A DNA stretch of 30,260 bases, from the UHGV virus genome UHGV-0035817; one strand, given 5' to 3'. Positions 2,220 to 30,067 of the stretch are shown one piece after another. Made by a program: the position numbers and the translations under genes. The stretch comes from a virus. The notes below the pieces were generated by a model. The model worked only from the letters and a program-made list of their open reading frames with translations, had not been told where the DNA came from and did not search any database. How positions within the stretch are numbered: the stretch's first letter is position 1; every line of letters begins with the position of its first letter.

Positions 2220-2698
2220 TATCCCGCCCCCGTCATATCCGTGAATTTAGTCGCCATACTGCCAGCCTTACCGATGAGCGATTCCGCCTGTTTACCGATA
2301 TCGCCATAAAGCGCGGCCAGTGATTCATCAACGCGGGTGAGCGACAGCGTAAAATCAATTTTTCGGGGTGTGCCGTCTGCAAAGAAAATACTCCCTGTTT
2401 CATTCACCCTGCTGATGACATACATGCCGTAAATCATGCCAGTGCCATCCAGCAACGGCCACGCCCGACCTTCCTCTGCCATCAGCCTGAGCGTGGTCAT
2501 CGTCAGCTTTCCGCCGGTCAGTTCGGGATAAAGCACGCCGGCAAGCGTGATGTTTTCCTCGCCAACACCGAGAAACTGAAAGGCATCCCGTTTACCGATA
2601 CGGGAATTTGACGGCCAGCGATAATCGGATTCACGCTGCATGGTCTGGTGTGGCAGCGTCTGGCGCATAAAAACAAACATACCTAACGCGAGCATCAT
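2219..2698 (-). CDS. U: Tail protein U (159 aa)
   Basis: Position between T and D, 159 aa as P2 gpU. Confidence 0.8.
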   Translation of the reverse strand: MMLALGMFVFMRQTLPHQTMQRESDYRWPSNSRIGKRDAFQFLGVGEENITLAGVLYPELTGGKLTMTTLRLMAEEGRAWPLLDGTGMIYGMYVISRVNETGSIFFADGTPRKIDFTLSLTRVDESLAALYGDIGKQAESLIGKAGSMATKFTDMTGAG

Positions 2699-2712
2699 TT
2701 TTCGTCACCTCC

Positions 2713-5160
2713 TTAACCGTCATGCATCATGCTGGCACGGGCGCGCGCACGTTTATCCCGCTCGTATTTTTCGAGCGCATCCTGTAACTGGCGGTCAAGC
2801 TGTGCCCCCGGCGCAGTACCACCCGTCAGGCTGATGTGATATTCGTTTTTACTCTGGTCCACATAAGAGCGACCAGCCGGTGCCGTGACCGGCTGATAAG
2901 CCTGATAGCCTGCATAAGAGCTGGTCGCCGGAATATAACCACCGGTGCCATACGTGGCGGCATGAGTCCTTGCGACGGTCTGGTCAAGTGTGTCTGACTC
3001 TTTGTTGATAACCCCGAGTTTTTCCAGTACCCAGTCAATACCGCTGCGCAGTTTGTTGAACGCATTAAGCGGCAGCATCAACGCGTCAGCCAGTGCCTGC
3101 CCGAACATGACGCCCGTGTCACGGCAACGGTTCAGGGTGTCCTGGGTGGCTTTAACCGGGGCAATCAGGTTTTTAAACCACTGCCACGCGGCCTGTAACT
3201 TTTCGCCCAGCCAGTCAAACACCGGCTTCAGTGGCGTGAACAGTTCTCCCACCGGCGCAAATGCCGCTTTCAGCCCTTCCACCACACCGCCAAAGAATGC
3301 GCTGACAGGCTCCCAGTATTTACGGATAAGCAACGCCCCGGCGACAATTGCGGCCACCACGACCACAACCGGCCAGCTAATAGCCCCGATGGCGGTCATA
3401 ACAGCACTGCCAACCGTCGTGAAGACTGCCCCCATTGCGCCTGCTGCCGCGATGATGGCATTGATGCCGGTGATAACCGGCCAGGCTACGAGGCCAATGG
3501 CACCGATGATGCCAGTCAGCGCCAGCGCGCCACCGGCAATGATGCCGATGGTTGACGCCAGTGATTTGTTTTTCTGGATCCAGCCGTCGAGTTTTAACAC
3601 ATACTTTGTGGCCGTCTGCGTGAGCTTACGCAGCGCGCCTTCCTGCTGGTCAAACAGGTCAGTCCCCACTGCCTCATAAGCGGACTGAAACTCTTTAAAG
3701 TCACCGCCTAGGTTGTCCTGCATGATATTTACCAGCTCGGCGGTCTTCCCGTCTGAGGCTTTAAACGCAGCGGTCAGTTTGTCCAGCTTTCCGGTTGAGG
3801 CGGCAGTCATCAGCACGGCGGCGGCTGAGCTGGCCTCCTCCCCGAAAATAGTTTTCATGTATTCAGCCTGCTGGGCAGTACCGAGCCGGTTTTTCTCAAA
3901 ACTGGCCTGCATTTCTTTCAGAATGGTAAATATTGGCCGGGTGTTTCCCTTGCTGTCTGAGGTTTTCACGCCAAGCTCTTTGAGTGCATCCCATGCTTTT
4001 CCCGTCGGTGCCTGCAGGCGGCTTAACACGGCACGGCTTCCCGTCCCCGCCATTGAGCCTGTGATTTTTGCATCATGCAGCGCCCCGACCATTGCGGCGG
4101 TTTCTTCAATGCTGACACCGGCATTTTTTGCCACAGGTGCGGCATAGGTCAGCGCATCGCTCATGCCGTCAAAATCGGCGGCGGTTTTGTTCATCGTCAT
4201 GGAGAGAACATCCCCGATATGAGCGACCTTATCGTTTGAAAGCTGAAAGGCGGATTTCATCCCCATCAGCAGGGCGGCGTTTTCTTCCATCGTGCGGCGG
4301 TTCGCCAGCGCCATATTCAGCGTGACCGGCGTTGCCGCCTGAATGGCATCAACATCCCCACCCGCTTTCGCGATGATTATCTGTGCACCGGCCGCATCAT
4401 CCGCCGAGGCGGCGGTATTGTCGCCGAGCTGGCGCGCCTGTTTGCGTAGTGCGGTCATTTCGGCGGAGTCTTTTGCCACTCCGAGCACGGCCTGCAATTC
4501 TGAGTTTTTCTGCGCAAACTCATAACCGGGCATCAGCAACTTAACTCCGGCCATCGTTCCCGCCGCCGCAATCCCCACACCGGCAGCGCCCACTGAGGCC
4601 ATATTTCCTGCCAGTTCCTTTCCGGCCTGATAACGCTGTTTTACTGCGTTAAGTTTTGCCTGTTGTGCACTGACACGCGCCAGTGCGTCACGCTGACGGT
4701 TAAGCTGTGCGGTGGTTTCACTGATACGGTTTTTCAGTCCCTGCTCATCATGTGCAAGATTGCGGGTATTAATTCCCACAACGGCCAGTTCCCGCTGCTG
4801 GCGTTTAACGGAATCCGTCAGGCGGTTATATTTCGCCTGTAAGTCCTCCGCCGCACGCTTTGCGGATTCCAGCACTTTCGCCTGAGCACGGGTCGGACGT
4901 TCGGTGTTTTTAAACTGTGTGGCAAGGGCTTCGGCCTCCTGCCGAGCCTTTTCAAGTGCATGACCAGTCACGGCGAGCTGTGCACTGGTCTTGCGAAATC
5001 CCTCAATACGGGATGCCTGACCGTTCAGCTCGCGCAGTGATTTTTGTGTTTCCCGGATATCCCCCGACAGCGATTTGCTCGCTGTGCGGATGGATTTAAA
5101 CGGGCGGGATGCCTGGTCAACAGCCCTGAGCAATACCTGTAATTTTACATTGTTACTCAT
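2713..5160 (-). CDS. T: Tail tape measure protein T (815 aa)
   Basis: Long Ala/Gly-rich coiled-coil protein with hydrophobic segment; 815 aa as P2 gpT; start ATG overlaps the E' stop. Confidence 0.9.
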   Translation of the reverse strand: MSNNVKLQVLLRAVDQASRPFKSIRTASKSLSGDIRETQKSLRELNGQASRIEGFRKTSAQLAVTGHALEKARQEAEALATQFKNTERPTRAQAKVLESAKRAAEDLQAKYNRLTDSVKRQQRELAVVGINTRNLAHDEQGLKNRISETTAQLNRQRDALARVSAQQAKLNAVKQRYQAGKELAGNMASVGAAGVGIAAAGTMAGVKLLMPGYEFAQKNSELQAVLGVAKDSAEMTALRKQARQLGDNTAASADDAAGAQIIIAKAGGDVDAIQAATPVTLNMALANRRTMEENAALLMGMKSAFQLSNDKVAHIGDVLSMTMNKTAADFDGMSDALTYAAPVAKNAGVSIEETAAMVGALHDAKITGSMAGTGSRAVLSRLQAPTGKAWDALKELGVKTSDSKGNTRPIFTILKEMQASFEKNRLGTAQQAEYMKTIFGEEASSAAAVLMTAASTGKLDKLTAAFKASDGKTAELVNIMQDNLGGDFKEFQSAYEAVGTDLFDQQEGALRKLTQTATKYVLKLDGWIQKNKSLASTIGIIAGGALALTGIIGAIGLVAWPVITGINAIIAAAGAMGAVFTTVGSAVMTAIGAISWPVVVVVAAIVAGALLIRKYWEPVSAFFGGVVEGLKAAFAPVGELFTPLKPVFDWLGEKLQAAWQWFKNLIAPVKATQDTLNRCRDTGVMFGQALADALMLPLNAFNKLRSGIDWVLEKLGVINKESDTLDQTVARTHAATYGTGGYIPATSSYAGYQAYQPVTAPAGRSYVDQSKNEYHISLTGGTAPGAQLDRQLQDALEKYERDKRARARASMMHDG

Positions 5161-20230: not shown

Positions 20231-20403
20231 TGTCAGGAGTCCTGAATAGTGATTAGAGGAGTCACATGTCGGCATCAGTTTCCCGACGATGCGCATCCTC
20301 CGCCATCAGTCCCGGATGGCTTATCACTGACACAACAGCACCTTAGCGAATCGCGGGGCGCGACTCAGTAGCCTTGCCGTGTATTCATCACGGCGAGGTA
20401 TTC
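20231..20403. promoter_or_regulatory. Divergent late promoter region between O and P (expected Ogr-dependent promoters)
   Basis: Intergenic region between divergent late operons, as in P2; I could not confidently pick out the Ogr dyad. Confidence 0.4.
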
Positions 20404-22176
20404 ATGACCATCACCACAGACACCACTCTTTTGCACGACCCGCGTCGTCAGGCGGCGCTGCTGTACTGGCAGGGGTTTTCCGTGCCGCAGATTGCCGCCA
20501 TGTTGCAGATGAAACGCCCGACGGTGCAGAGCTGGAAACAGCGCGACGGCTGGGACAGCGTTGCCCCCATCAGCCGTGTCGAAATGAGTCTGGAAGCGCG
20601 GCTGACCCAGCTCATCATCAAACCGCAGAAAACCGGCGGTGACTTCAAGGAAATTGACCTGCTGGGACGCCAGATTGAACGACTGGCACGGGTAAACCGC
20701 TACAGTCAGACCGGCAACGAGGCAGACCTTAATCCGAACGTCGCTAACCGCAACAAAGGCGGGCGTCGCAAACCGAAAAAGAATTTTTTCAGTGACGAGG
20801 CCATCGAAAAGCTGGAGCAGATTTTCTTTGAGCAGTCTTTCGACTATCAGTTGCACTGGTATCGCGCCGGGCTTGAGCACCGCATCCGCGATATCCTGAA
20901 ATCCCGCCAGATTGGCGCGACGTTTTATTTTTCCCGCGAGGCGCTGCTGCGCGCCCTGAAAACCGGTCATAACCAGATTTTTCTGTCGGCCAGTAAAACG
21001 CAGGCGTATGTGTTCCGCGAATACATCATCGCCTTTGCCCGTCTGGTTGACGTTGACCTTACCGGTGACCCGATTGTCCTGGGCAATAACGGCGCAAAAC
21101 TGATTTTTCTCGGCACCAACTCCAACACCGCGCAGAGCCATAACGGCGACCTGTACGTCGATGAGATTTTCTGGATCCCGAATTTTCAGGTACTGCGTAA
21201 GGTGGCATCAGGTATGGCCTCACAGAGCCACCTGCGCTCGACCTATTTCTCCACCCCGTCCACGCTGGCGCACGACGCCTACCCGTTCTGGTCGGGTGAA
21301 CTGTTTAACCGGGGACGCGCCAGCGCCGCCGAACGCGTGGAAATCGACGTCAGTCATAACGCCCTTGCCGGTGGGCTTCTCTGTGCGGACGGCCAGTGGC
21401 GACAGATTGTCACCATTGAGGACGCCCTGAAAGGTGGCTGCACGCTGTTCGACATTGAGCAGCTCAAACGCGAAAACAGCGCCGACGATTTTAAAAACCT
21501 GTTCATGTGTGAATTTGTTGACGACAAGGCGTCGGTGTTCCCGTTCGAGGAGCTGCAACGCTGCATGGTCGACACGCTGGAAGAATGGGAAGACTATGCG
21601 CCGTTTGCCGCGAATCCGTTCGGCTCCCGCCCGGTATGGATTGGTTACGACCCGTCACACCGTGGCGACAGCGCCGGATGCGTGGTGCTGGCACCACCGG
21701 TGGTGGCCGGTGGCAAATTCAGAATACTTGAGCGTCACCAGTGGAAAGGCATGGACTTTGCCACCCAGGCTGAATCCATCCGCAAACTCACCGAAAAATA
21801 CAACGTCGAATACATCGGAATTGATGCCACCGGCCTCGGTGTCGGCGTGTTCCAGCTCGTGCGCTCGTTCTATCCCGCCGCGCGCGACATCCGCTACACG
21901 CCGGAAATGAAAACCGCAATGGTGCTCAAGGCAAAAGACGTTATCCGCCGTGGCTGTCTGGAATACGACGTCAGCGCCACCGACATCACCAGTTCGTTTA
22001 TGGCTATCCGCAAGACCATGACCAGCAGCGGACGCAGTGCCACCTATGAGGCCAGCCGCAGCGAGGAAGCCAGCCACGCCGACCTCGCCTGGGCGACCAT
22101 GCACGCCCTGTTAAATGAGCCACTCACCGCCGGTATCAGCACCCCGCTGACATCCACCATTCTGGAGTTTTACTGA
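20404..22176 (+). CDS. P: Terminase large (ATPase) subunit P (590 aa)
   Basis: Start trimmed to MTITTDTTLL with RBS GAGG upstream; stop overlaps Q start (ATGA). Confidence 0.9.
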   Translation: MTITTDTTLLHDPRRQAALLYWQGFSVPQIAAMLQMKRPTVQSWKQRDGWDSVAPISRVEMSLEARLTQLIIKPQKTGGDFKEIDLLGRQIERLARVNRYSQTGNEADLNPNVANRNKGGRRKPKKNFFSDEAIEKLEQIFFEQSFDYQLHWYRAGLEHRIRDILKSRQIGATFYFSREALLRALKTGHNQIFLSASKTQAYVFREYIIAFARLVDVDLTGDPIVLGNNGAKLIFLGTNSNTAQSHNGDLYVDEIFWIPNFQVLRKVASGMASQSHLRSTYFSTPSTLAHDAYPFWSGELFNRGRASAAERVEIDVSHNALAGGLLCADGQWRQIVTIEDALKGGCTLFDIEQLKRENSADDFKNLFMCEFVDDKASVFPFEELQRCMVDTLEEWEDYAPFAANPFGSRPVWIGYDPSHRGDSAGCVVLAPPVVAGGKFRILERHQWKGMDFATQAESIRKLTEKYNVEYIGIDATGLGVGVFQLVRSFYPAARDIRYTPEMKTAMVLKAKDVIRRGCLEYDVSATDITSSFMAIRKTMTSSGRSATYEASRSEEASHADLAWATMHALLNEPLTAGISTPLTSTILEFY

Positions 22177-23210
22177 TGAGCAAGAAAAAAGGGAAAACAC
22201 CGCAACCTGCGGCAAAAACAATGACCGCCAGCGCCCCGAAAATGGAGGCATTCACCTTTGGCGAGCCGGTGCCGGTACTCGACCGCCGTGACATTCTGGA
22301 TTACGTCGAATGCATCAGTAACGGCAGATGGTATGAGCCGCCGGTCAGCTTTACCGGTCTGGCAAAAAGTCTGCGTGCTGCCGTGCATCACAGTTCACCG
22401 ATTTACGTCAAACGTAATATTCTGGCTTCAACGTTTATCCCGCACCCGTGGCTTTCCCAGCAGGATTTCAGCCGTTTTGTGCTGGATTTTCTGGTGTTCG
22501 GTAATGCGTTTCTGGAAAAGCGTTACAGCACCACCGGTAAGGTCATCAGACTGGAAACCTCACCGGCCAAATATACCCGTCGTGGCGTGGAGGAGGATGT
22601 TTACTGGTGGGTGCCGTCCTTCAACGAGCCGACAGCTTTCGCGCCCGGCTCCGTGTTTCACCTGCTGGAGCCTGATATTAATCAGGAGCTGTACGGCCTG
22701 CCGGAATATCTCAGCGCCCTTAACTCTGCCTGGCTGAATGAGTCGGCCACGCTGTTCCGCCGCAAGTATTACGAAAACGGCGCACATGCCGGATACATCA
22801 TGTACGTCACTGATGCCGTGCAGGATCGCAACGATATCGAAATGCTCCGCGAAAACATGGTTAAGTCAAAAGGCCGCAATAACTTTAAAAATCTGTTTCT
22901 CTATGCCCCGCAGGGGAAAGCCGACGGCATTAAAATTATCCCGCTCAGTGAAGTGGCAACGAAGGACGATTTTTTTAATATCAAAAAAGCCAGCGCCGCA
23001 GACCTGCTGGACGCGCACCGCATCCCCTTTCAGTTGATGGGCGGCAAGCCGGAGAACGTCGGGTCGCTGGGTGATATTGAGAAAGTGGCAAAGGTCTTTG
23101 TCCGCAATGAGCTTATCCCGTTACAGGACAGGATTCGGGAAATAAACGGCTGGCTCGGTCAGGAGGTCATCCGCTTTAAAAACTACTCACTGGACACTGA
23201 CAACGGCTGA
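22176..23210 (+). CDS. Q: Portal protein Q (344 aa)
   Basis: 344 aa; follows P on the same strand and is followed by terminator and cos. Confidence 0.9.
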   Translation: MSKKKGKTPQPAAKTMTASAPKMEAFTFGEPVPVLDRRDILDYVECISNGRWYEPPVSFTGLAKSLRAAVHHSSPIYVKRNILASTFIPHPWLSQQDFSRFVLDFLVFGNAFLEKRYSTTGKVIRLETSPAKYTRRGVEEDVYWWVPSFNEPTAFAPGSVFHLLEPDINQELYGLPEYLSALNSAWLNESATLFRRKYYENGAHAGYIMYVTDAVQDRNDIEMLRENMVKSKGRNNFKNLFLYAPQGKADGIKIIPLSEVATKDDFFNIKKASAADLLDAHRIPFQLMGGKPENVGSLGDIEKVAKVFVRNELIPLQDRIREINGWLGQEVIRFKNYSLDTDNG

Positions 23211-23213
23211 ACA

Positions 23214-23238
23214 TCGCCGCCTGCGGGCGGCTTTTTTA
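23214..23238 (+). terminator. Rho-independent terminator of the P-Q operon
   Basis: GCCGCC-TGCG-GGCGGC followed by TTTTTT. Confidence 0.8.
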
Positions 23239-23379
23239 CACCCCGTCATCACGCCCTCACACGCTCACCACCGCGCAAAACAGCCCGCAGACAAACCAAC
23301 GCCCCGGCGCACAATCTAAACGCCATTACGACGCGCTGAGACGCTGAAAAAATAAAATCAGCACCACCGCCAGCGCGCA

Positions 23380-23398
23380 GTGCTTTCCCCGCCTCGCC
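23380..23398. other. cos site (19-nt cohesive end)
   Basis: GTGCTTTCCCCGCCTCGCC is the reverse complement of GGCGAGGCGGGGAAAGCAC, the P2 cohesive-end sequence as I recall it. Confidence 0.8.
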
Positions 23399-23683
23399 CG
23401 CCCGCTTCACGGGGCGGTTTTAATGCAGTTGCATAGATACTATGGATCCGCACCAGTCCTGACCGCACGCAGCCTGAACGGACATCCCCAACGCATGCAA
23501 AAACATTCACTTGTTGCATGCATAGCTTTTTAAGTACGCCATACCGCAACTGTACATTTTTAAGCAATTGGCAACCTTAAAAAATTTACATTGCTTTCAA
23601 GACCTTATCATCCGTAGTCTCTGTTTTTTACTTTGAGCTACATCAATAAAATCTCAAACATGTTTAATGCAAAGCCCTTGTTA

Positions 23684-23737
23684 CACAACATAGAATGTAT
23701 GTCTAGAAACAACGACATACTATATGTTGTGTTTTTC
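23684..23737 (+). ncRNA. Long imperfect hairpin (about 17 bp paired) followed by T5; candidate small RNA 3' end or terminator
   Basis: ACACAACATAGAATGTATGTC ... GACATACTATATGTTGTGT then TTTTT; lies ~450 bp past the P-Q terminator, so it ends some other short transcript. Confidence 0.35.
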
Positions 23738-23876
23738 CGGCTCTCTGTTCGGTGATATGCCAAATCACTTTGCGTTTAAACAGAGCATTATTTCAGGGCA
23801 AGACTTCGCTCAAAAGTCATTCCACCTAAGAAGCGCATATACCGGTGGAAGTTGCCCTCTACTTACAGGAGGCAAT

Positions 23877-23990
23877 ATGAAGAAATGCTATTACTGCATT
23901 CTCGTTCTGGCCCTCTTTGGCTATCCAAACGGTAGTCCGAGTGGTTTGTCAGTAAACGTCAGTAATATCAATGTCAGCATTATGCTTTAA
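23877..23990 (+). CDS. Small ORF (37 aa) with hydrophobic N-terminus
   Basis: AGGAGG 4 nt upstream of ATG; MKKCYYCILVLALFGYPNGSPSGLSVNVSNINVSIML; stop is followed within ~15 bp by a strong bidirectional terminator. Confidence 0.4.
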   Translation: MKKCYYCILVLALFGYPNGSPSGLSVNVSNINVSIML

Positions 23991-24002
23991 TATGCTTCAA
24001 AC

Positions 24003-24033
24003 AAAAAAACCACCTGCCAGGGTGGTTTTTTTG
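24003..24033. terminator. Bidirectional rho-independent terminator (A7-ACCACC...GGTGGT-T7)
   Basis: GC hairpin flanked by A-run and T-run; terminates the small ORF on plus and probably the A operon on minus. Confidence 0.75.
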
Positions 24034-24292
24034 CGCCCATCATCAATACGATGAAAGACTGACAAGACTTCGCTCAAGACGAATTATGCGTCGACATAAG
24101 GTTACCCGCAATGATTTTATTAGACTAAATGGATGGCCTTTTATGACCCGGATCAAACGGCTGTCCTTACCGACATGCTAGTCACTCAATAGCATTTAGC
24201 CTTCTAATTCAGCATGCTATTGACCTTCTGCTGCCCCATAACTGCTCCGCATAAGCCATTCAATGCCATATCAAATCACGTTGTGTTTTTAC

Positions 24293-26569
24293 TCAAATGG
24301 GTAACGAGAACCCCGGCCACTCATCAGCAACCGGATACGTGAATTTTTTCCCGTCATAATTTACGGTCGCGCCACGCGCCAGCGCCTCAAGCTCCCATCG
24401 TTGCGGCCTGATACCGTTCTGAGCGAGGTCAACGCGGATACGGGTAATTTGCAATCGTTCAGACCTGGTCAGTCTGGCAGATGGTGCAATTTCATGCGGT
24501 TTTAACGGGATTCCGTTTCTTTGCTGACGATTTGGTGTTCTCAGTCCGTGTTTTAATGCGCCCCTGAGCGCCATCACGACCTCCGGGTCACTCCATTCGA
24601 TAACACCGTCATCTACCAGATTAAGCACTGCTGCGGCGTGCTCAGAAGGTGTGGGAGCCGGTAACGAAGTATCACCACCGGTGAGCTTTCCACAGTTATT
24701 GACAGGACTCCGAGGCGCGGCGATGCCGCTTTTTAAAGTCAAAGGCTCAACGACCGGAACTTTCGGCACAATGCGCCAGTCCGTCGTTCTGGTGATATGA
24801 ATATGACGCGCGCCGAGATGCGGCGCGTAAATGCCGACCACTCTCTCGACTTCTTCCTCGTACTCGTTAACGTCATCCGACAGACTACGGGCGACCCTGA
24901 CAGTCTGACAATCGCGCGGGACATTTGCCCCGCCCTGCGCGCTGATATACAGCGCAAAATCACCACTGTCTGCGGCGGCGCGTGCAGCCTCGACGCGCTC
25001 GTCAAACTCATCAGCAATGCTGACGCCGCGAGGCAATTTGCGTAGTTCACGGTAAGCCCCCATTGTCGGCAGGCCAACCGTTTTAAATTGCGGAATGCGC
25101 CACGTTGACGCCCATGCGGTAACAGCCGCTGCAGTGTCTTTCAGCGGCCTGCCGGTGTCGTTATCGAGCTGACCATCCAGTGCATAGCCGTCGATGTTTT
25201 TTGAAATGTATTTCGCGATATATCCCGCAGCACCGCCCCGGTTAAGGTGTTTTGCCTGAAAACGGTTTCGCGCGGCTCCTCTTTCGTCGCCATCCTCTTT
25301 GAGCGCATAGCGACGCATGATTTCGATAATCTGGTTACGCTGGCGTGGATGACAAAAAAGCATCATATGCCAGTGCGGCGTTCCGTCGTGGTGTGGCTCG
25401 ACGACTCGCAAACCGTAGACCTGTAAATCATTATCCTTGAATGCCGTGCGCATCAGGCTCCAGATACGGCAGAGATAACGCTGCGCATCCTTTGGATTAA
25501 ATGCCTCATCGTTCCAGCCGTGATTAAGCTGAACGGTTTTACTTTCGCCTTTTCCGACCTGACGTGTCGGGTGATACTTTGACGGCGCGGTCAGCGTGAT
25601 AAACATCCCCACATCACCCTCTGCGGCGGCGTAACGCTCAATACCGGCAATGGTGTTCATCAGCTCCATCCGGCGAATTTCAGGATTAGAAATACTGCCC
25701 ATCACCTTACTGATAAGGTCGATGCGCTCGCCGGTTTCCCTGTTTTCAAGGTCACACGATTTAAGAAATTCCAGATTTGCCTGGCGGCGCGCACGCACAT
25801 CACGAATGGCGTGTTTACTGGCATAAGGAGAACGGTCTTTATTGACCTCCCCGACAGCTATCAGTAACGCCTCATGCCAGCGCATACGCTGGCCTTTAAG
25901 CTGATGAGTCCACCACTCATCGTTAAACAGGCGGGCAATGGCAGAATATGCCTGCCTCGTGGTCATCTGTCCTTTACGGTATTTTTTCCAGTAGAGCGGG
26001 GAAATATTGAAAGCACGTGCAGCGCCAGCAACATGACCATACAGGTGAGCCTGCGCCTCATCCGTAAACAGCGATTCTTTTTCACCATGCGCATCAACCC
26101 ATGCATCGCAGAGTTCCTCATACATCATGAAAAGCTGCGATGAGATACGGGCGGCAAACTTTTTCAGCTCCTTGTCATTCATTCCCGGCAGGCGCGCATA
26201 GTGGTCACGCTCTGCCAGAAACAGCAACGACGCGTCGGTGTTCATTTCATGGCGCTGATTCACACGCTCAATGCGCGGCCATAAACGACGCTGAAAAGTA
26301 GATGTGAGGAAATAAAACCCGTGCACCGGGCTTTTATTGCGCCGGATGTAGTCATAGCGTGAAGTAAACAGCGAGCGCAAAAAGTAAGGCAGGCGGTTAA
26401 TCGTGGATAAAACACCTTGCACCTGACGCATCTCGTCACGTGTAAGAGGTCTTTCGCGCCCGACAGCCTCGCGTGGCGCGTTCCATGCATAAGCACCGGT
26501 AAACGCCTTACCGGTGCCTGCGGTAAATGCTGACGGAGGGACAAAACGCCCGGAGGCTTTAACGGCCAT
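24293..26569 (-). CDS. A: Replication initiation protein A (rolling-circle nickase, about 758 aa)
   Basis: MAVKASGRFVPPSAF... matches my recollection of the P2 gpA N-terminus; the ORF track uses an upstream TTG at 26611, so the start is uncertain. Confidence 0.85.
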   Translation of the reverse strand: MAVKASGRFVPPSAFTAGTGKAFTGAYAWNAPREAVGRERPLTRDEMRQVQGVLSTINRLPYFLRSLFTSRYDYIRRNKSPVHGFYFLTSTFQRRLWPRIERVNQRHEMNTDASLLFLAERDHYARLPGMNDKELKKFAARISSQLFMMYEELCDAWVDAHGEKESLFTDEAQAHLYGHVAGAARAFNISPLYWKKYRKGQMTTRQAYSAIARLFNDEWWTHQLKGQRMRWHEALLIAVGEVNKDRSPYASKHAIRDVRARRQANLEFLKSCDLENRETGERIDLISKVMGSISNPEIRRMELMNTIAGIERYAAAEGDVGMFITLTAPSKYHPTRQVGKGESKTVQLNHGWNDEAFNPKDAQRYLCRIWSLMRTAFKDNDLQVYGLRVVEPHHDGTPHWHMMLFCHPRQRNQIIEIMRRYALKEDGDERGAARNRFQAKHLNRGGAAGYIAKYISKNIDGYALDGQLDNDTGRPLKDTAAAVTAWASTWRIPQFKTVGLPTMGAYRELRKLPRGVSIADEFDERVEAARAAADSGDFALYISAQGGANVPRDCQTVRVARSLSDDVNEYEEEVERVVGIYAPHLGARHIHITRTTDWRIVPKVPVVEPLTLKSGIAAPRSPVNNCGKLTGGDTSLPAPTPSEHAAAVLNLVDDGVIEWSDPEVVMALRGALKHGLRTPNRQQRNGIPLKPHEIAPSARLTRSERLQITRIRVDLAQNGIRPQRWELEALARGATVNYDGKKFTYPVADEWPGFSLPI

Positions 26570-26834
26570 ATGAGCCAAAAGCCTCTGAACAACGCTTGCT
26601 GAGTTGCTCAACCTGCGCGTTTAAATCAGCAAAAGATTTTGCGCTTCCGGTCAGAATATCGTGATGCATCAGGCCGGAAACGAGCTGGCCTAATTTCGGG
26701 TAATAACCAACCACCGCCAGCCATTCCTGACCGGCGTTTTTACCGCTTTCCGCTCTCTTTTTCTCGTGGAGAATAAACTGAAAGCTGTCACTGGTAACGA
26801 CATAACGTTTGCCAATTTCAATACGAATACTCAT
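26559..26834 (-). CDS. Small early protein (P2 orf83-like position, 91 aa)
   Basis: Position between the zinc-finger ORF and A; function unknown. Confidence 0.6.
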   Translation of the reverse strand: MSIRIEIGKRYVVTSDSFQFILHEKKRAESGKNAGQEWLAVVGYYPKLGQLVSGLMHHDILTGSAKSFADLNAQVEQLSKRCSEAFGSYGR

Positions 26835-29017: not shown

Positions 29018-29086
29018 CTCTATATAAAGATTACATTTTCACCATTTGCTACCAAGATGGTGAATACAGCGCCGGAGGGCTTTCTT

Positions 29087-30067
29087 ATGGCAATTAAGAA
29101 GCTCGATGATGGTCGCTATGAAGTGGACATTAGACCTCGCGGTCGCGACGGAAAACGCATCCGCAGGAAATTCGAAAGAAAAGCTGAAGCACTAGCATTT
29201 GAGCGATACACAATCGCCAATGCCAGTCAGAAAGAATGGGGAGGCCAGCGAGCAGACCGCCGGACTTTGAGTGAGTTGCTGGACATCTGGTGGAAATATC
29301 ACGGGCAAAACCACGAGCATGGAACAAAAGAGTTTAATCATCTACTCAAAACCATCAGCGGCATAGGTGATATACCAGTGAGCAGGATGAGCAAAAGGGC
29401 TTTGATGGATTATCGTTCCATGCGACTACGTGATGGTATCAGTGCCGCAACGATAAACCGTGACATGTACCGATTATCCGGCATGTTCACAAAATTAATT
29501 CAATTGGATGAATTTTCCGGGCAACACCCAATTCACGGACTGCCGCCACTGGCGGAGGCCACCCCTGAAATGACGTTCCTGGAAAAAGCAGAAATCGAAA
29601 AACTGTTAAATGTTTTGGCTGGTGATGACTTACTTGTCGCGCTTTTATGTCTGAGCACCGGAGGAAGATGGACGGAAGTTGCCACGCTAAAACCAGCACA
29701 GATTACAAATTGCAGGGTTACCTTCCTGAAAACCAAAAACGGTAAAAAGCGAATCGTGCCGATTTCTGAGGAACTGGAGAAAAAAGTTAAAGAGGAGGCC
29801 AGCGCCAAATTATTCAAAGTTGATTATGAGAAATTTTGCGGGATTTTACGCAGAGTGAAACCTGATATACCACCCAATCAGGCAACCCACATCCTGCGGC
29901 ATACATTCGCAAGCCATTTCATGATGAATGGGGGCAATATAATCGCACTGCAACAGATTCTGGGACATGCGAGCATTCAGCAGACGATGGCCTATGCGCA
30001 CCTTGCGCCTGACTATCTGCAAAATGCCGTCGCTCTGAATCCACTAAAAGGCGGAGTGACGTTATAA
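29087..30067 (+). CDS. int: Tyrosine integrase (326 aa)
   Basis: MAIKKLDDGRYEVDIRPRGRDGKRIRRKF... P2 Int-like N-terminus; C-terminal catalytic region HILRHTFASHFMMNGGNI...LGHASIQQTMAYAHL; start trimmed to ATG with GGAGGG RBS. Confidence 0.9.
   Translation: MAIKKLDDGRYEVDIRPRGRDGKRIRRKFERKAEALAFERYTIANASQKEWGGQRADRRTLSELLDIWWKYHGQNHEHGTKEFNHLLKTISGIGDIPVSRMSKRALMDYRSMRLRDGISAATINRDMYRLSGMFTKLIQLDEFSGQHPIHGLPPLAEATPEMTFLEKAEIEKLLNVLAGDDLLVALLCLSTGGRWTEVATLKPAQITNCRVTFLKTKNGKKRIVPISEELEKKVKEEASAKLFKVDYEKFCGILRRVKPDIPPNQATHILRHTFASHFMMNGGNIIALQQILGHASIQQTMAYAHLAPDYLQNAVALNPLKGGVTL

Follow-up and report, generated by a model that had tools for sequence, protein, structure and literature searches.

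Among the described type I toxin-antitoxin (TA) systems, the par locus of pAD1 from Enterococcus faecalis (RNA I/RNA II, with the peptide Fst) combines convergent promoters, direct repeats transcribed both ways, a shared bidirectional terminator and a stem that sequesters the Shine-Dalgarno (SD) sequence. In tisB/istR-1 and zorO/orzO, the pairing site lies far upstream of a masked ribosome-binding site (RBS), and the tisB and dinQ promoters are regulated by LexA. In hok/sok, the Hok peptide measures ~50 aa and has conserved cysteines, its translation is coupled to that of the mok frame, and Sok acts in cis by overlapping the 5′ end. Here we describe a 565-bp cassette in the virus genome UHGV-0035817 (hereafter the window, the whole analysed stretch of 30,260 nucleotides, given as one strand), which is nearly an entire P2-like (Peduovirus) prophage. 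The cassette lies between the replication gene A and cos and is probably an undescribed TA-like module that is also common on Klebsiella plasmids. We estimate the probability that it is a functional cassette of a peptide gene and a small RNA (sRNA) gene at about 0.85, and judging from its sequence, slightly better than even odds can be given to its working as a type I TA(-like) module. This reading is built on conservation, a coding signature, promoter footprints, complementarity and spread, from which we infer the transcripts, their pairing in vivo, toxicity and control by FNR and NrdR.

The predicted layout of the cassette matches that of par in all four elements named above, and in both cases the locus encodes a small hydrophobic peptide (33-37 aa) and occurs on plasmids and phages. 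The cassette differs from par in having one repeat pair instead of DRa and DRb, in placing its repeat 64 nt upstream of the AUG and not over the initiation region, in its hosts (Enterobacteriaceae versus Firmicutes) and in its promoter, a regulated paralogue of that of nrdDG. Since the peptide has neither sequence similarity to Fst or Ldr nor their PXXXG(C) motif or charged C-terminal tail (8/8 variants), we do not file it in that family despite the matching architecture. With tisB/istR-1, zorO/orzO, shoB/ohsC and dinQ/agrB, the cassette shares a stretch of sRNA complementarity that is short (here 15-17 nt) and lies well upstream of a masked RBS, and with tisB and dinQ a stress-regulated promoter, the predicted regulators being FNR and NrdR. 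However, the sRNA genes of that class are divergent and upstream, whereas the sRNA gene of the cassette is convergent and downstream and shares its terminator; the peptides are unrelated, and there is no sequence or Rfam similarity, the match to OrzO-P (E=1.5) covering the terminator only. The hok/sok system, one copy of which is annotated on the Klebsiella plasmid pKPN3, is likewise a plasmid-borne addiction module of enterobacteria made of a small peptide and an antisense RNA, but the peptide of the cassette has no Hok match in NCBIfam or Pfam. Neither Hok, Ldr, TisB, ShoB, Ibs, ZorO and DinQ nor Sok, Rdl, IstR, OhsC, Sib, OrzO and AgrB gave a sequence or covariance-model match in searches with Pfam, NCBIfam, PHROGs, PADLOC and Rfam.

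The peptide gene, ORF37, is a real protein-coding gene under purifying selection. The open reading frame (ORF) has exactly 37 codons behind GGAGG in 53 of 53 extracted loci, with GGAGG and the spacing retained, and all of these loci carry both repeats together with the intact ORF. In the ORF37 frame, the pooled proportions of synonymous and nonsynonymous differences (pS and pN; Nei-Gojobori, 21 pairs) are 0.479 and 0.158, giving a pN/pS of 0.33, while the other two frames give 1.69 and 1.08. Variable sites are distributed 13/12/25 over the three codon positions, a twofold third-position excess. The length and stop are preserved despite up to 40% peptide divergence among the eight variants, which include MKKCYYCILVLALFGYPNGSPSGLSVNVSNINVSIML in the window, MNRLCLCILVLTLFGYPVGSQSGWSVNVSHINVNISL in Klebsiella and MNKWHYCILVLALFGYPTGSQSGWSLTVSHISISFIM in Citrobacter/Enterobacter. 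With a hydrophobic stretch at residues 4-16, the product is a small hydrophobic peptide of fewer than 60 aa, as in the generic definition of type I TA systems. By sequence comparison, it belongs to no known family: the variants have no match in NCBIfam, PHROGs or PADLOC, none of the nine small ORF translations in the interval has a match in Pfam, and the peptide is deposited solely as 'hypothetical protein', for example, as ECW_m2278 of E. coli W.

The cassette core is shared at 72-94% identity among E. coli P2-like prophages, Klebsiella plasmids and Enterobacter/Citrobacter plasmid DNA, the copies diverging by up to 28%. P2-type copies were found in 30 viral and 13 further metagenome contigs, and the diverged copies (72-78% DNA identity), on a Citrobacter freundii contig (L007) and a metagenome contig (L051), were retrieved by a degenerate search with the peptide. 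The core of ORF and sRNA gene is present in 152 of 5426 complete E. coli genomes, at 152 chromosomal places and on plasmids twice, and except for these two plasmid copies it always lies within P2-like prophages. When L007 was used as the query against PLSDB, 414 plasmids matched (388 over at least 80% of the query), 394 of them from Klebsiella and 351 conjugative, with the types IncFIB, IncFII and IncHI1B. A copy identical to L007 resides on an IncFIB plasmid of Enterobacter hormaechei. None of the matches, in RefSeq E. coli or on plasmids, overlaps an annotated feature, and the neighbours are wholly different between contexts, being insertion sequence (IS) elements, an ABC transporter, traX or the P2 A gene. 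On the strength of these comparisons, we regard 23577-24140 as a cassette of two genes that is autonomous and moves horizontally; here it sits at the edge of the A-cos hotspot nearest to A. It can co-exist with other hotspot cargo.

The second gene of the cassette is recognized by its conservation pattern, which was computed over seven representatives of five clades, with 48% of all columns invariant. On the minus strand, every clade has TAATAAA, 3-4 nt, TTGCGG or TTGCGA, exactly 17 bp, CATAAT, 6 nt, (U/C)GAGCGAAGUCUUG, a hairpin and a terminator. The invariant fraction is 1.00 for both the -10 and the 13-nt seed encoded by the second repeat copy (R2), 0.94 for the terminator and 0.83 for the -35; it is 0.29 for the discriminator, 0.24 for the 17-bp spacer and 0.12 for the central hairpin. 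We read this pattern as the footprint of a sigma-70 promoter driving a predicted ~72-nt RNA from ~24075 to ~24003. The sequence of the central hairpin differs by clade, yet the helix remains paired (12% sequence invariance against 90% pairing); counted over all cells, 95.7% are paired, and this falls to 45-67% once the partners are slid. In five pairs both sides have changed, and only 4 of 500 shuffles reached the covariation score. The 16 G·U cells in the central helix would be A/C mismatches if read on the plus strand, and the single change in the terminator stem (in L051) gives a G·U pair on the minus-strand RNA and a C/A mismatch on the plus strand; both point to the minus strand as the one constrained as RNA. 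Since the terminator, which has perfect 13-nt arms with an A-run before and a T-run after it, is shared by both predicted convergent transcripts, their terminator hairpins would be complementary. In Rfam, searched with the interval at E ≤10 and with the whole window at the gathering score, only sub-threshold matches driven by the terminator were found (RNAI, Phe leader, OrzO-P and rseX). The structure search proposed in the original prediction therefore yielded no known family, and what it brought instead was the covarying central hairpin and conserved stems in the leader of the peptide gene. We predict an adjacent, partly complementary sRNA gene from its promoter footprint, its covarying hairpin, its terminator and the 15-17 nt of complementarity kept in five clades.

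Because the two copies of the direct repeat, R1 and R2, are transcribed in opposite directions, the 5′ end of the sRNA is complementary to a leader site 64 nt ahead of the AUG. The exact 15-nt repeat CAAGACTTCGCTCAA is 100% identical at 23799-23813 and 24063-24077, and the 17-mer, allowing at most three mismatches, has two matches in the 30-kb window versus 0.07 expected. Of the 13 core columns, 85% are invariant in R1 across five clades (48% overall), and 13 of 13 in R2. The two sites are always linked at a distance of 264-267 bp, and both are conserved in every copy. The duplex of sRNA and leader is longest in the window, at 17 bp, against 14-16 bp in other clades, and its core of 12-13 bp does not vary at either site in any copy. 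Four substitutions in the core or at the edge of the duplex keep the pairing via G·U, namely A to G in R1 of L051 and the R2 flanks GACAAG, AGCAAG and GGCAAG, and in the clade of locus L003 a C to A change in R1 at the duplex end shortens the duplex to 14 bp. RNAduplex, which permits large internal loops, did not discriminate the pair of sRNA and mRNA from shuffled controls.

Folding of the leader is consistent with a hidden translation start. In partition-function folds, the unpaired probability of the SD is 0.06-0.40 in 8 of 8 homologues, so that the RBS is predicted to be masked, and that of R1 is 0.44-0.63 versus a leader mean of 0.42-0.44, so that in most homologues R1 is predicted to be less often paired than the leader on average. 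In several homologues, R1 lies in a small predicted hairpin, GACUU/AAGUC (23804-23818), with CGCUCAA as its loop; the CUCA in this loop is a YUNR motif of the U-turn-like kind. This loop motif appears in minimum-free-energy folds only; YUNR motifs speed antisense recognition in other systems. An imperfect 30-nt direct repeat (73% identity) connects leader hairpin A (23748-23777) with a site just before the A stop codon (24259-24288) and may be due to chance.

The promoter of the peptide gene appears to be borrowed. The nrdDG promoter is activated by FNR and repressed by NrdR, with NrdR box 1 overlapping one of the FNR sites, and the FNR consensus is TTGAT-N4-ATCAA. Over 102 nt, positions 23577-23678 are 80% identical to the region between treC and nrdD of E. 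coli, which is the genuine nrdDG promoter, since it contains verbatim the published 57-bp nrdDG probe bound by purified NrdR. Promoter elements were compared in an eight-sequence alignment, in which the homology spans the A/T tract, TTTACA, FNR-2, FNR-1, the -10 and the region of NrdR box 2. As in nrdDG, the FNR sites are 31 bp apart; FNR-2 is identical in the window and nrdDG, the plasmid clades have TTGATgcaaATCAC as FNR-1 and the window has TTAATgcaaAGCCC, and the -10 is TAAAAT or TAGAAT. The plasmid-type copies retain NrdR box 1 (TCACTACATATAGAAC against GCACTATATATAGACT), with box 2 displaced about one helical turn farther away. The palindrome ACACAACATA...TATGTTGTGT consists, in the E. 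coli prophage clades, of two NrdR-box look-alikes that are shifted in position; the window lineage has a shifted look-alike in place of box 1, and its second box aligns with box 2 of nrdDG after an insertion of 11-16 nt. The clustered palindromes of the original prediction are present, and the nature of this one among them is corrected to a pair of NrdR-box-like elements in a promoter homologous to that of nrdDG. The linker between the boxes is 26 bp in the plasmid type, 16 bp in the E. coli variants and 18 bp in the window, where 15-16 bp would be expected between two 16-bp NrdR boxes. Downstream of box 2 the leader is unrelated to nrdDG, and the promoter drives the 37-codon ORF instead of nrdD, with a predicted transcript start near 23703. 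We conclude from the alignment that this promoter is a paralogue of the chromosomal nrdDG promoter. FNR activation of the peptide gene is then a reasonable prediction, and NrdR repression of the window's own copy seems plausible but uncertain. The upstream half of the promoter (23577-23680) comes especially near to E. coli nrdDG in copies of the E. coli prophage clade, with up to 88% identity over 68 nt (L006 3970-4071; L052 3955-4040), whereas the Klebsiella plasmid clade differs in that half; recombination of the cassette with the nrdDG promoter of its respective host could account for this.

In the mechanism that we consider most likely, that of a type I TA pair, gene 1 is read rightward from a promoter predicted to be FNR-activated and NrdR-repressed and encodes the 37-residue peptide with its hydrophobic N-terminal segment, the SD being, by prediction, hidden in a leader stem. 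Gene 2 would be read leftward, converging on gene 1, and give the ~72-nt sRNA from its own sigma-70 promoter, and both transcripts would end at the one bidirectional terminator. The sRNA would bind R1, perhaps following contact between the terminator loops, and this binding would block translation (e.g. at a standby or entry site, preventing ribosome loading) and/or trigger cleavage of the peptide mRNA. Peptide synthesis would require promoter activation, by anaerobiosis via FNR and relief from NrdR, and/or decay of the sRNA, and a drop in the sRNA or induction of the promoter would allow a membrane-active peptide to be made. A bolder form of this mechanism, which we consider doubtful, sees the cassette as a suicide or addiction switch wired to the nucleotide pool and to oxygen, and, with its places in the P2 anti-phage hotspot and on conjugative Klebsiella plasmids, as a minimal device for abortive infection or post-segregational killing. 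The promoter captured from nrdDG would then open when NrdR loses its dATP/ATP-dependent binding and/or FNR is active, and depletion of deoxynucleoside triphosphates (dNTPs), as in replication stress or lytic phage infection, would be the signal.

Several observations weigh against a toxin under antisense control. The hydrophobic stretch has just ~13-14 residues and is followed by P-x-G-S-x-S-G and an uncharged Ser/Asn-rich tail, so that by sequence a signal peptide joined to an exported peptide of 15 residues describes it as well as the helix of a classical type I toxin with its charged tail; the AlphaFold2 single-sequence model is uninformative, with a predicted local distance difference test (pLDDT) score of 60. 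The window lineage has a degenerate FNR-1 (6/10), a degenerate NrdR box 1 and boxes spaced by 34 bp versus 31-32 bp, and a conditional nrdDG-like promoter is in any case unusual for a plasmid-addiction toxin. Only ~5 clades are independent, hence the modest covariation statistics. A Klebsiella study with RNA interaction by ligation and sequencing (RIL-seq) and differential RNA sequencing (dRNA-seq) (PMC10907235) used the plasmid pKPN3, which is without the cassette, and its supplements hold no matching sequence; literature searches on the peptide, the seed, ECW_m2278, and NrdR together with type I toxins gave nothing relevant. On another view, which we consider possible though unlikely, the same anatomy serves a non-toxic product: a benign small membrane or exported peptide, possibly a signal peptide cleaved to release ~15 residues, produced during anaerobiosis or dNTP stress to serve in lysogenic conversion or as an accessory factor of plasmids, with its level tuned by the sRNA. 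The peptide alignment has the n-h-c layout of a signal peptide (MKK, a 13-residue hydrophobic core, P-x-G-S-x-S↓G), the C-terminal half alternates polar and hydrophobic residues and is uncharged, unlike the tails of Fst, Ldr, TisB and Hok, and the promoter was copied from a physiological operon, nrdDG. However, the hydrophobic segment is the most conserved part (67% invariant columns versus 45% in the tail), the reverse of usual signal peptides, and, as is typical of addiction or abortive modules, the cassette resides on plasmids, in prophage hotspots and in IS-rich regions and has a predicted antisense RNA of its own.

Other explanations depart from the paired genes themselves. That the sRNA acts chiefly in trans on mRNAs of the host or of a competitor (phage or plasmid), with R1 a secondary target or sponge, would fit its typical enterobacterial shape, in which a 5′ seed that is single-stranded precedes a hairpin and a U-tailed terminator, and the invariance of the seed across five clades; we consider it improbable, given the invariable linkage and joint conservation of R1 and R2 and the lack of any further match with at most three mismatches in the 30-kb prophage. 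Still less probable is the absence of any sRNA, the 15-mers being sites for a DNA-binding protein or insertion relics and ATTATG/CCGCAA a plus-strand promoter or other DNA signal. A consensus scan does find a plus-strand promoter-like CTGACA-17-AATTAT at 24059-24087, overlapping R2 and the minus-strand -10, which speaks against the sRNA gene, and DNA hairpins are strand-symmetric. The plus-strand -35, though, occurs as CTGACA, CTAGCA or CTGGCA, and R2, which would be its 'spacer', does not vary, the reverse of the footprint that a promoter leaves; the site gives no reason for CCGCAA and TTTATTA farther downstream, neutral relics at the observed 25% divergence would be expected to have ~3 changes per 13-mer, and the G·U pattern favours a minus-strand RNA. 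The plus-strand site accounts for the conservation, as far as the alignment tells, much less well than the sRNA promoter. If active, it would yield an RNA antisense to the sRNA promoter and the A 3′ end. The original prediction had left two options, the scar of lost cargo or a compact module of RNA and small peptide such as a type I TA. A decayed scar of tin, old, orf91 or other genes, with chance structures, would agree with the low GC, the lack of a large ORF and the known high turnover of the hotspot, and yet it is barely credible. When P2 26500-33593 was compared by blastn (word size 7) and tblastx, just the A 3′ end and the cos end matched, with no similarity of 23437-24300 to orf91, tin or old; no ORF translation has a Pfam match, ORF37 is under purifying selection, and the same 565-bp unit is kept in unrelated genomic contexts, including hundreds of plasmids. 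The second option, a peptide-plus-sRNA module, suits the frame-specific coding signal, the sRNA promoter footprint, the complementarity and the spread on plasmids, and appears to be the better description of the locus.

Table 1 Features of the A-cos interval and neighbouring genes of the window.
Feature	Position	Strand	Basis or detail
Terminase gene P	20374-22176	+	ORF list
Portal gene Q	22176-23210	+	ORF list
cos cohesive end, 19 nt	23380-23398		23380-23427 is 100% identical to P2 33546-33593
G+C hairpin with T-run	23398-23417		CCGCCCGCTTCACGGGGCGG+TTTT; terminator scan
cos-proximal backbone	23398-23522		Not in the cassette; includes the G+C hairpin with T-run
Cargo insertion point	23522-23529		Empty here; insert boundaries in L002, L004, L005
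Self-contained cassette core, 565 bp	~23577-24140		Homology common to all copies
nrdDG-type promoter	23579-23702	+	Homology to the E. coli treC-nrdD intergenic region
A/T tract and TTTACA	23579-23590	+	
FNR-2 box TTGAGctacATCAA	23633-23646	+	Identical in window and nrdDG
FNR-1-like TTAATgcaaAGCCC	23664-23677	+	
NrdR-box-like 16-mer (first)	23683-23698	+	
-10 TAGAAT	23691-23696	+	
Second NrdR-box-like 16-mer ATACTATATGTTGTGT	23717-23732	+	Right arm of a 10-bp inverted repeat
Predicted 5′ leader, ~175 nt	23703-23876	+	RNAalifold, 8 homologues
Leader hairpin A	23743-23785	+	A-U to G-C compensatory change in the inner stem
R1, direct-repeat copy 1, sRNA target	23797-23813	+	Complementary to the sRNA 5′ end
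Leader stem B	23820-23850	+	UUCCACC/GGUGGAA in the window, CUCCGCC/GGCGGA in sister clades
Anti-SD/SD hairpin	23854-23872	+	GCCCUCU-type anti-SD upstream pairs with the SD
SD AGGAGG	23867-23872	+	
ORF37	23877-23990	+	MKKCYYCILVLALFGYPNGSPSGLSVNVSNINVSIML, 37 codons + stop
Bidirectional intrinsic terminator	24002-24033		Perfect 13-nt arms 24002-24014 and 24021-24033, flanked by A7 and T7
Predicted sRNA, ~72 nt	24003-24075	-	5′ seed (U)UGAGCGAAGUCUUG, central hairpin, terminator hairpin with U-tail
sRNA central hairpin	24036-24059 (plus coordinates)	-	
R2, direct-repeat copy 2, encodes sRNA seed	24061-24077	-	
Putative sRNA promoter	24083-24122	-	TAATAAAA 24115-24122; -35 TTGCGG 24106-24111; 17-bp spacer; -10 CATAAT 24083-24088
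P2-lineage-specific 3′ flank of gene A	24141-24292	-	Outside the mobile core; plasmid-copy homology stops near 24140
Replication gene A	24293-26611	-	ORF list
Integrase gene	near 29057-30067		

The cassette occupies a site that is already well known, the A-cos (tin/old) hotspot, whose census covered protein-coding gene arrangements (Rousset et al. 2022; Odegrip et al. 2006). In the P2 reference, orf91, tin and old fill 3.26 kb between A and cosR. In this prophage, the interval from A to cos is 894 bp, the GC is 0.39-0.44 across 23450-24350 versus 0.51-0.61 in the flanking genes, and all ORFs of at least 30 aa in the interval are short or unconserved. The original prediction had described exactly such a short, low-GC interval at the old/tin position, without large cargo or a large ORF, and all the features it listed, among them the 37-aa ORF with its strong RBS (ATG at 23877, stop ending at 23990), the strong bidirectional terminator and the 15-bp direct repeat pair, are present at their places. 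It had also called the long ORFs spurious-looking, and the 88-aa ORF (23724-23990) is indeed rejected as a gene, since a TAG interrupts it in sister clades; a protein database search with the 88-aa extension found near-identical entries only. The other small ORFs (36, 40, 41, 37, 31, 42 and 69 aa) are rejected as genes because they are not conserved as ORFs, and the minus-strand ATG within the sRNA is missing from other clades. Like other P2 hotspot cargo, the cassette lies between A and the portal gene Q beside cos, in AT-rich foreign DNA with variable neighbours; it differs in being unannotated in RefSeq and in having no PADLOC match.

The comparison with related prophages that the original prediction had called for divides the interval into three parts: a cos flank, a cargo junction, which is empty here, and the region of the cassette, conserved beside A. 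The 48 bases at 23380-23427 match the last 48 bases of P2, and the annotated 19-nt cosR is the last 19 nt of that stretch; because these P2-identical bases include cosR, cos is placed as in Table 1. The segment 23380-23522 is common to P2-like prophages at 92-100% whatever cargo they carry, its first ~35 bp, including the hairpin with T-run, being very widely shared, and it is packaging-site backbone. The hairpin had been counted among the structures of a possible module; it exists as described and is part of the conserved cos end, not of the module. At the junction, loci L002, L004 and L005 carry a 2.7-kb three-gene insert precisely between the sequences matching ...23522 and 23529..., L003 has ~82 extra bp, and other loci carry an AAA ATPase. 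The region 23529-24292 has no annotation in RefSeq, yet it is 86-94% conserved beside A in all compared related prophages. Complete E. coli genomes with an identical or near-identical copy of the whole interval number 114, among them those of E. coli W and its derivatives. Two P2-like prophages, Wphi1 and Wphi2, have been reported in E. coli W, and Wphi2 of E. coli W (ATCC 9637) has the interval at 99.7% identity.

The three-gene cargo (L002 258-2433; L004/L005 2453-4628) sits between the cos flank and the cassette and encodes products of 313 aa and 199 aa, both without a Pfam match, and of 161 aa (ImmA/IrrE, Peptidase_M78); it may be an uncharacterised hotspot system. In L003 (NZ_OZ547099), retron Ec48, with its reverse transcriptase and effector membrane protein, lies at 761-2649 (window ~23210-23380) between Q and cos. 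Since this is the opposite side of cos from the A-cos hotspot, both sides of cos accept cargo. In many 'complete' E. coli assemblies, the interval is found on the minus strand at identical coordinates (2270-3170, 2439-2773), ~2.3 kb from base 1; such assemblies were evidently rotated to begin at the P2 replication gene A, not at dnaA.

On the other side of the cassette, the mechanical ORF of gene A has a TTG start and 772 aa, and RefSeq homologues are annotated with 758-760 aa, so that the true start is probably a downstream ATG. No intrinsic terminator was found after the A stop codon in the minus-strand fold of 24126-24300 (z = -0.6), and with this score the A 3′ flank was rejected as a terminator or structured RNA. 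With no terminator separating the cassette from the A stop codon, the P2 early operon probably ends at the bidirectional terminator of the cassette, and A transcripts would then carry the antisense sRNA sequence at their 3′ end.

The 565-bp cassette is carried by ~3% of complete E. coli genomes and by several hundred clinically relevant conjugative plasmids of Klebsiella, and standard annotation shows nothing at its place or, at most, a 'hypothetical protein'. 'Empty' P2 hotspots are therefore not necessarily empty. If the cassette is a type I TA module, it would represent a new toxin family and a Gram-positive-style, par-like layout in enterobacteria, and it would be a candidate determinant of plasmid stability or phage defence. 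The borrowed nrdDG promoter predicts induction by anaerobiosis, by loss of nrdR and by hydroxyurea, and would link mobile elements to dNTP-pool sensing. Should the peptide in addition prove to act as a switch responding to nucleotide pools and oxygen, the cassette would be the first type I system that the ribonucleotide-reductase regulator controls and, in Enterobacteriaceae, the first with a par-like convergent architecture to be described.

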